NCBI RefSeq assembly: GCF_016026235.1
Contig: NZ_CP065613.1
Reading direction: 5' to 3' (one strand)
Length of the DNA: 64,000 nucleotides
Source of the DNA: Escherichia coli
Lineage (GTDB): Bacteria > Pseudomonadota > Gammaproteobacteria > Enterobacterales > Enterobacteriaceae
Made by a program: the position numbers and the translations under genes. Below are positions 5,569-9,120 of this stretch, in pieces. The notes beneath the pieces are model-generated. The model saw only the letters and a list, made by a program, of their open reading frames with translations. It was not told the DNA's origin and searched no databases. Numbering within the stretch: the stretch's first letter is position 1; each line of letters opens with the position of its first letter.

Positions 5569-7564
<1,996 letters not shown>

Positions 7565-7739
7565 TATTTTCTCTTTTCTGTTAATTATTGAGAATAATTA
7601 TTACTTCACTCAATAAGCTGCGGATATAACATTCTGAACCGCAGCTATTTGTGAATCCTTTCACAGTTTAAATTTCCCCACGCGCATAGCCTTAATATCA
7701 GCTCGCAATATTTATACTCTAAATAATTCGAGTTGCAGG

Positions 7740-7853
7740 AAGGCGACAAGTGAGTGAGTCCCCAGGAGCTTACATAAGTAAGTGACTGGGGTGAGCGAAC
7801 GCAGACGCAGCACATGCAACTTGAAGTATGACGAGTATATTAGCGTTCGCCTT
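7740..7853. repeat. ERIC/IRU (enterobacterial repetitive intergenic consensus) element
   Basis: Contains aagtaagtgactggggtgagcg (identical to the ERIC2 primer sequence) and gtgagtccccaggagcttacat (one mismatch to the ERIC1R complement); terminal inverted repeats aaggcga...tcgcctt. Confidence 0.85.
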
Positions 7854-7881
7854 AATTACTCATAGCATTAAGGAAGATCAC

Positions 7882-9120
7882 ATGCCGCAACAAAATTATC
7901 TGGATGAACTCACTCCGGCTTTTACGCCGTTACTGGCGATTAAAGAAGCCTCTCGCTGTTTATTATGTCACGACGCTCCCTGTAGTCAGGCTTGCCCGGC
8001 ACAGACCGATCCGGGGAAATTTATTCGCTCAATCTACTTTCGTAATTTTAAAGGCGCTGCCGAGACAATTCGCAAAAATAATGCCCTCGGTGCCGTTTGT
8101 GCCAGAGTGTGCCCGACGGAGAAATTATGCCAAAGCGGTTGTACCCGTGCCGGTGTTGATGCTCCCATTGATATCGGCCGCTTACAGCGTTTTGTTACTG
8201 ATTTTGAACAACAAACCGGGATGGAAATTTATCAGCCCGGTACTAAAACGCTCGGCAAAGTCGCGATTATTGGCGCAGGTCCTGCCGGATTGCAGGCCAG
8301 TGTGACACTGACAAACCAGGGTTATGACGTCACGATTTATGAGAAAGAAGCGCACCCCGGTGGCTGGTTGCGTAACGGTATTCCGCAATTCCGGTTACCG
8401 CAATCAGTGCTGGATGCAGAGATCGCCCGTATTGAAAAAATGGGCGTGACCATTAAGTGCAACAACGAAGTCGGTAAAACACTCACCCTGGAGCAACTGA
8501 AAGCGGAAAACCGCGCGGTACTGGTCACCGTGGGGTTATCAAGCGGTTCCGGGCTACCGCTGTTTGAGCATAGCGACGTTGAGATTGCCGTCGACTTCCT
8601 GCAACGTGCACGACAGGCGCAAGGCGATATCAGCATTCCACAAAGTGCATTAATTATCGGCGGCGGTGATGTCGCGATGGACGTAGCCAGCACGCTGAAA
8701 GTTCTCGGCTGTCAGGCGGTAACTTGCGTAGCGCGTGAAGAGTTAGATGAGTTTCCGGCAAGCGAAAAAGAGTTTGCCAGCGCCCGGGAGCTGGGCGTTT
8801 CGATCATCGATGGATTCACGCCAGTAGCCGTGGAAGGCAATAAAGTCACGTTTAAGCATGTACGGTTATCGGGCGAACTGACGATGGTGGCAGATAAAAT
8901 TATTCTCGCCGTCGGTCAGCATGCCAGACTGGATGCCTTTGCGGAGTTAGAGCCGCAGCGTAACACCATCAAAACACAAAATTACCAGACCCGCGACCCG
9001 CAAGTCTTTGCTGCTGGCGATATTGTTGAGGGTGACAAAACCGTGGTCTATGCCGTAAAAACCGGGAAAGAAGCCGCCGAGGCGATTCATCACTATTTAG
9101 AGGGAGCTTGCTCATGTTAA
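7882..9120 (+). CDS. preT: NAD-dependent dihydropyrimidine dehydrogenase subunit PreT
   Basis: ORF 7828..9120; conserved start [14 protein letters not shown] at ATG 7882 with AAGGAAG upstream; 4Fe-4S cysteine clusters and GAGPAG FAD/NAD fold. Confidence 0.9.

Follow-up and report, generated by a model that had tools for sequence, protein, structure and literature searches.

What occupies the spacer between yeiS and preT in the 64,000-nucleotide stretch of Escherichia coli DNA analysed here (the window), and could it alter how the preTA operon is expressed? We find that the feature is a bona fide, intact, full-length ERIC/IRU copy, that is, a non-autonomous miniature inverted-repeat mobile element. 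Our confidence in this reading is high, and applies jointly to the ERIC identity, to insertion at a TA dinucleotide, to a position after the preTA promoter, to a co-transcribed leader hairpin and to a post-transcriptional mode for any effect on the operon.

An ERIC copy upstream of preT

The initial annotation had recognised in this spacer an ERIC/IRU copy carrying the exact ERIC2 primer sequence, and we find that this primer, AAGTAAGTGACTGGGGTGAGCG, matches the + strand at 22 of 22 positions (7776-7797) and has no other match in the 64 kb. The ERIC1R primer likewise has a sole match in the window, at 21 of 22 positions (one mismatch) on the - strand at 7754-7775. The two sites are adjacent and in the expected opposite orientations, together making up the conserved ERIC core (7754-7797, +), an arrangement for which zero occurrences are expected by chance. 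None of 100 shuffled sequences contained any match to either primer, and this control together with the empty-site comparison described below rules out that mere chance matches to the ERIC consensus were being read as an element.

Both the inverted arms and the alignment with empty sites place the complete element at 7713-7839 (+), a length of 127 bp including both TA copies, with a net insertion of 125 bp (7715-7839, +). Its 25-nt left terminal arm (7713-7737, +) is 80% complementary to the right terminal arm with which it pairs (7815-7839, +), and the ends read TATACTC and GAGTATA. The limits first proposed, 7740 and 7853, were thus wrong by 27 bp and 14 bp respectively; these two positions match the ends of a fortuitous 7-nt complementarity (AAGGCGA/TCGCCTT) between a stretch within the ERIC and one in the downstream flank. 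Since empty alleles read ...ATATTTA-TTTAGCG... with a single TA, and filled alleles align to them as ...ATATT-TA-(TACTC...GAGTA)-TA-TTTAGCG, the TA was duplicated on insertion and is now present as a left copy at 7713-7714 and a right copy at 7838-7839. Insertion at TA with duplication of the dinucleotide is a described property of ERICs (PMC2229807).

The spacer itself measures 317 bp, as had been annotated, running from the yeiS stop codon at 7564 to the preT ATG at 7882, and the ERIC accounts for 40% of it: it starts 149 bp past the yeiS stop and ends 42 bp upstream of the preT ATG, 30 nt before the Shine-Dalgarno sequence. The flanking genes, identified as open reading frames and from the RefSeq annotation of matching loci, are yeiS (DUF2542; 7325-7564, +) and preT, also called yeiT, which encodes a subunit of NAD-dependent dihydropyrimidine dehydrogenase (7882-9120, +). 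RefSeq annotates nothing within the yeiS-preT spacer.

In every respect that we compared, namely core, length, inverted ends, TA duplication, multiple copies and enlarged variants, the preT element agrees with the ERIC/IRU/RU-1 family of Enterobacteriaceae and Vibrio, which has been reviewed (PMC2229807). Like other members it is a 127-bp imperfect palindrome with a core holding both ERIC-PCR primer sites, it has TA termini and a TA target duplication, copies are dispersed in the genome and variants with internal inserts of ~70-80 bp exist, and it sits at an intergenic site in a region that, judging from its position, should be transcribed. It differs in nothing of kind; the preT copy is absent from K-12. 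Such elements were reportedly described by Sharples and Lloyd in 1990 and Hulton et al. in 1991, and revisited by Wilson and Sharp in 2006, and enlarged ERICs that carry an internal insert at a constant position are said to go back to Sharp in 1997. The preT ERIC is then typical of its family, which has been known since 1990-91, and that ERICs come and go between strains was already known.

E. coli genomes hold a median of 5-6 megablast places for the ERIC. The copy between pgk and fbaA is 98% identical to that at preT, from which it differs by 2 nt, and longer paralogs are found at dxs-yajO and yehK. One and the same 78-bp insert is found at three loci (preT, dxs-yajO and yehK), each time at an identical ERIC position; at preT its insertion point corresponds to 7798-7799, after ERIC position 86, and 232 of the genomes with a filled site carry this enlarged form, or long ERIC. 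As side observations, the 78-bp insert consists of four short hairpins (E. coli AR435 copy, L002 936-1013; also L083 and L085) and gives a weak, sub-threshold Rfam match of 28.6 bits to Aggregatibacter sRNA 22 (AaHKsRNA22). Moreover, in the metagenome contig OFGE01000001.1 the ERIC and its preT upstream flank run into the start of fbaA, the right flank of the pgk-fbaA ERIC; the join reflects either a chimeric assembly, the repeats being 98% identical, or a genuine rearrangement between two ERIC copies.

When folded as + strand RNA the element forms one long imperfect hairpin (MFE -52.7 kcal/mol, z -7.5), with the AU-rich arm on the 5' side of the preT-sense RNA. The - strand folds less well (MFE -38.9 kcal/mol, z -4.4) as several of the + strand pairs are G-U. 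Rfam has no ERIC family, and its only matches here are sub-threshold, that to the 78-bp insert and V_AS5 on the ERIC itself. That the element constitutes a gene of its own for a small or antisense RNA resembling V_AS5, or that it resembles an ERIC by chance, is very improbable: V_AS5 (RF02818, 'Vibrio RNA AS5') does align with it end to end at 7712-7835 (46.7 bits, E 3e-8), but far under its gathering threshold of 96 bits and best read as V_AS5 appearing to be itself a Vibrio ERIC copy, the consensus scan finds neither a promoter nor a terminator flanking the element, and chance is excluded by the primer matches, the shuffles and the empty sites.

The preTA promoter and the position of the insertion

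Outside the ERIC, the preTA promoter carries a CRP site, TGTGAATCCTTTCACA, at 7650-7665 (+, centre 7657.5), with a perfect half-site pair that is conserved in 17 taxa. The same site is the yeiTA activator site of RegulonDB and a genomic SELEX peak (PMC3105977 supplements). At a fixed spacing from it lies the predicted class II -10 hexamer TAGCCT (7687-7692, +); in 16 of the 17 taxa, which span six genera (Escherichia, Citrobacter, Pseudocitrobacter, Kluyvera, Salmonella arizonae and an Aeromonas), the first base of a TAG(C/G)CT hexamer is exactly 29.5 nt from the CRP centre while the intervening sequence varies. From this geometry we infer a class II CRP-dependent promoter that would start transcription at about 7699-7700, or about -59 relative to preT.

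Published indications of the start do not coincide with this footprint or with each other. In K-12, directed 5' RACE mapped the 5' end of yeiT to -47 (Tttactaaacg...; PMC2760140 supplementary file 3), which by alignment is equivalent to 7711-7714 (+), 3-4 nt short of the target TA. A weak start supported by two reads has been reported at -228, inside yeiS (Kim 2012). The Cappable-seq supplement has no start-site entry in the range. The three indications (~-59, -47 and -228) thus disagree, and the class II start is also at odds with the RegulonDB placement of the CRP site at -57.5, which would make the A of the target TA the +1. In addition, the hexamer that fits the K-12 RACE start as a -10, TACATT, is limited to the K-12-type haplotype, and ERIC-associated alleles have CACGCA there. 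Our searches of the literature for the preTA promoter, preTp and yeiTp returned nothing relevant.

Since each of these starts precedes the insertion, the ERIC is expected in the preTA leader transcript, where it should form a hairpin of ~-53 kcal/mol. The statement of the initial annotation that ERIC elements are transcribed finds its support here in position, that is, in the location of the element after the CRP site, the cross-genus -10 and the K-12 start, from which transcription in ERIC-bearing strains would follow. A consensus scan of the + strand within and after the ERIC detected no sigma-70 promoter and no terminator-like site, which fits an activator-dependent promoter and the absence of attenuation by the element. 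On the result of the same scan we rejected an ERIC-borne promoter or terminator.

The closeness of the K-12 RACE end (TTTAC, -47) to the target TA, and the RegulonDB coordinate that makes the A of this TA the +1, could instead mean that the insertion disrupts or displaces the promoter, either by changing the choice or strength of the start or by adding 125 bp between the gene and its start and so uncoupling preTA from CRP. A -10-like AATATT (7707-7712) adjoins the insertion, and a start set by it would fall in the left arm of the ERIC. Against this, the invariant TAGCCT at class II distance in six genera predicts a start ~15 nt upstream of the insertion, Kluyvera is without any second -10-like box, and the elements upstream of +1 are intact either way, and the ERIC would still be transcribed. 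We consider promoter displacement improbable, and hold to an insertion that would lie within the transcribed leader.

Several other features surround the element. Downstream of it and unchanged by it is a leader hairpin, CCTTAAT/ATTAAGG with an N10 loop (7850-7876, +), which overlaps the preT Shine-Dalgarno sequence AAGGAAG (7870-7876, +) such that the first bases of the latter are paired. In all genera examined the stem keeps its sequence and the loop varies; the hairpin may serve to control preT translation. Upstream of the CRP site, at 7582-7600, there is an AT-rich palindrome, TAATTATT-GAG-AATAATTA, in a block that is invariant in the ten Escherichia-genus alleles aligned and that looks like a putative regulator binding site. 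After yeiS and adjoining the CRP site we also observed an inverted repeat, CAATAAGCTGCGG / CCGCAGCTATTTG (7611-7651, 15-nt loop), which failed the terminator scan. Further away, a REP-like palindrome upstream of sanA (6454-6491, -) gives an Rfam naRNA4/CssrE match of 31.4 bits against a gathering score of 59.5.

Distribution in E. coli and its relatives

That presence of the element varies between strains, as the initial annotation had stated, was borne out by a survey of 5426 complete E. coli genomes, 2197 of which (~40%) have a filled site upstream of preT. The remaining ~3200 are empty and include K-12 MG1655, HS, O157:H7 and an ST131 strain; E. coli is thus polymorphic for the insertion of an ERIC in the preT leader. 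Two classes of empty site can be told apart, an O157 type with flanks 99.5% identical to the window and a K-12 type comprising ~1484 records (90-95% identity band). Where present, the ERIC is almost invariant at preT in E. coli, with one G18A variant seen that converts a G-U pair to A-U.

The exact allele of the window is rare, being at least 99% identical in 14 genomes, and is distinguished by a GCTCG SNP and the loss of one T from the TTT run after the element. Because of this deleted T, an ATG in the right arm of the ERIC (7828) is in frame with preT in the rare allele, where it opens a 430-aa reading frame with an 18-residue N-terminal extension; no Shine-Dalgarno sequence was found upstream of it. 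In the common ERIC-bearing allele the right-arm ATG opens a 12-codon uORF that ends at a TAG just before the Shine-Dalgarno sequence.

The spacer is polymorphic beyond the ERIC. With the element removed, the window and K-12 are 86.2% identical across the spacer, compared with 240 of 240 positions in yeiS and 99.2% over the first 600 nt of preT, such that two spacer haplotypes ~14% apart are found between virtually identical genes. Differences between the window and K-12 cluster around the K-12 start and -10 region (TACATTATT vs CACGCAATATT). This deep divergence between virtually identical genes resembles the switched intergenic regions, or horizontal regulatory transfer, reportedly described by Oren et al. 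in 2014 and Thorpe et al. in 2018, and the spacer (7565-7881) behaves as such a switched region. That concept covers the whole spacer, however, whereas the ERIC is one component of one haplotype.

Among the species-representative genomes with PreT that we scanned, no ERIC was found upstream of preT in Citrobacter, Kluyvera, Pseudocitrobacter or Salmonella arizonae. Within Escherichia the site has several states. All 10 E. albertii genomes examined carry an ERIC at this site, which occurs in four variants and is 78% identical to the window copy. Genomes of the 'E. coli E69' type retain a 69-bp remnant of the E. albertii-type ERIC, left by a 58-bp central deletion, that folds as a hairpin of -24.6 kcal/mol; Escherichia sp. 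MOD1-EC7003 has the E. coli long ERIC form minus 32 bp of core; and E. whittamii, Escherichia sp. E1V33 and one E. coli representative have an empty site with a K-12-type flank, the K-12-type spacer being common to the first two.

The E. albertii copies raise the question of whether the hairpin has been exapted as a regulatory RNA, that is, selected at preT since before the E. coli/E. albertii split to control the fate of preTA mRNA. Besides the shared site in all ten genomes, the pattern of substitution speaks for this: the E. albertii and window elements differ at 28 of 127 positions and yet all 41 + strand pairs are kept, compared with 34 of 41 on the - strand, through seven one-sided and three two-sided pair changes, and with five extra pairs the E. 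albertii RNA reaches an MFE of -56.4 kcal/mol. When the same 28 substitutions were placed at random the MFE was -34.1 +/- 4.5 and none of 500 trials reached the observed value, and E. coli ERIC paralogs with as few as 3-14 substitutions break 2-5 pairs. Furthermore, the 78% identity of the element is close to the 68-76% identity at third codon positions, as expected of an old orthologous insertion.

A scan of metagenome contigs for T39/G46, the states common to the window and E. albertii and absent from the paralogs, points the other way. Of its 30 matches 29 were the preT locus, but one was an ERIC at an unrelated locus of another species (L132), which at the 28 differing sites shares 11 states with E. 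albertii and 15 with the window. Since an unrelated locus carries 11 of the 28 E. albertii states, much of the apparent compensation is an ERIC-subfamily difference inherited from different source copies, and we have withdrawn compensatory evolution at preT as proof of selection. Preservation of the pairs is real, and probably reflects a constraint on the ERIC family that cannot be assigned to preT function. The E. coli preT ERIC is of the E. coli subfamily and differs from the pgk-fbaA copy by 2 nt; it may have inserted recently and independently at the same TA, or be a converted copy. Polymorphisms arising in situ in E. albertii keep three of five affected pairs and break two, remnants with internal deletions exist, and ~60% of E. 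coli are without the element. Exaptation at preT before the species split is accordingly a reading we regard as unlikely.

Expected consequences for preTA expression

Insertion of the ERIC leaves the CRP site, the -10 hexamer, the conserved Shine-Dalgarno hairpin and the ribosome-binding site all intact. The mean unpaired probability between -20 and +15, calculated with the ViennaRNA partition function, is 0.65 with the ERIC and 0.66 without it, and the long-ERIC form and the K-12 allele have similar accessibility. As the four folded alleles show no meaningful change in accessibility of the Shine-Dalgarno sequence or AUG, occlusion of the ribosome-binding site was rejected. With promoter elements and ribosome-binding site intact, any effect of the ERIC should be post-transcriptional.

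We propose that the ERIC, which inserted at a TA, duplicating it, 42 bp before the preT ATG and downstream of the CRP-activated promoter, would be co-transcribed with preTA to give, near the start of the 5' leader, an extended imperfect hairpin of ~125 nt, beginning at about +16 if the class II start is used or at about +5 if the K-12-mapped start is used. Stable hairpins near an mRNA 5' end impede RNase E as it enters or scans, and RNase III can act on long duplexes. The hairpin could thus be an obstacle to or a substrate for these enzymes, with altered leader processing or mRNA half-life as the result. An effect on preTA mRNA stability or processing, in either direction, is plausible in this model.

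Three known systems offer comparisons. In Yersinia, as the work of De Gregorio et al. 2005 is summarised in PMC2229807, ERICs are co-transcribed as hairpin RNA, have orientation-dependent, RNase E-related effects on transcript level and differ between strains in being filled or empty. A hairpin RNA, expected here to be co-transcribed, and strain-variable filled and empty sites are features also of preT; however, in the Yersinia cases so summarised the ERIC abuts the upstream stop codon and ribosomes unfold the hairpin, whereas the preT copy lies in a 5' leader behind its own promoter. Since 149 bp, including the preTA promoter, separate the element from the yeiS stop, this ribosome-unfolding mechanism is inapplicable to preT. 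With its AU-rich arm 5' in the sense RNA the preT ERIC has what we take to be the Yersinia 'A' orientation. On account of that arm and of the distance from yeiS we rejected a 'B-oriented' mRNA destabiliser of the Yersinia type, which would require an ERIC that overlaps or adjoins the stop codon of a co-transcribed upstream reading frame and has its RNase E site in the 3' arm. Correia/NEMIS elements of Neisseria are also TA-duplicating miniature elements often found in 5' leaders, with a transcribed hairpin that is cut by RNase III, but they are an unrelated sequence family, and some Correia elements carry promoters or IHF sites whereas the preT ERIC is without a promoter-like site. The ompA-type 5'-UTR stem-loops, which according to Emory, Bouvet and Belasco (1992) reportedly protect E. 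coli mRNAs from RNase E, resemble the predicted preT leader in having a very stable hairpin near the mRNA 5' end and upstream of the ribosome-binding site; obstacles to RNase E scanning are likewise said to have been described by Richards and Belasco in 2019. Protection of the ompA type needs the stem within a few nucleotides (~0-4) of the 5' end, and at preT this distance is 0-2 or ~14 nt depending on the start. More fully, folding with an assumed start for this allele leaves 0-2 unpaired nucleotides ahead of the hairpin for starts at 7711-7716, 2-13 for starts at 7719-7721 and ~14 for 7699-7700.

We give an even chance to the ERIC being a neutral passenger, transcribed with preTA and of no measurable consequence for it, with a frequency that mirrors lineage history only. 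Unchanged predicted accessibility of the ribosome-binding site, an untouched promoter, CRP site and Shine-Dalgarno hairpin, the coexistence of filled alleles with empty ones that have 99.5% identical flanks, and the tolerance of decayed remnants in other Escherichia lineages all favour neutrality, and the near-monomorphism of the element in E. coli, together with its 98% identity to the pgk-fbaA paralog, suggests a young insertion. The decay variants, unchanged accessibility and pair-breaking E. albertii polymorphisms are compatible with near-neutrality. On the other side, a -53 kcal/mol hairpin 5-16 nt from the mRNA 5' end belongs to a type of structure established as altering RNase E access, and Yersinia ERICs change the levels of flanking transcripts in the account of De Gregorio 2005 that PMC2229807 gives.

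Beyond the post-transcriptional effect proposed above, it is possible, if doubtful, that presence or absence of the ERIC and of its 78-bp-enlarged form is a common natural cis-regulatory variant of preTA mRNA stability, and hence of the rate of uracil reduction and 5-fluorouracil inactivation across gut E. coli lineages; in a stronger version, to which the same doubt applies, the hairpin would be kept by selection in both E. coli and E. albertii. In the literature on preTA we found no mention of this ERIC copy or of the spacer haplotypes. In mouse models the level of preTA expression determines 5-fluorouracil inactivation and protection from capecitabine toxicity, and functional studies of the operon used the K-12 derivatives MG1655 and BW25113 (bioRxiv 10.1101/820084; PMC11185696). 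The preTA leader of these two strains is without the ERIC, and ~40% of sequenced E. coli have a structured insertion of 125-203 nt in it. If the leader variants alter expression, preTA gene-copy counts from metagenomes would misestimate activity. The ERIC thus presents the modest possibility of a natural cis-regulatory variant of preTA, the operon for E. coli dihydropyrimidine dehydrogenase, which is pharmacologically relevant in that it inactivates 5-fluorouracil.
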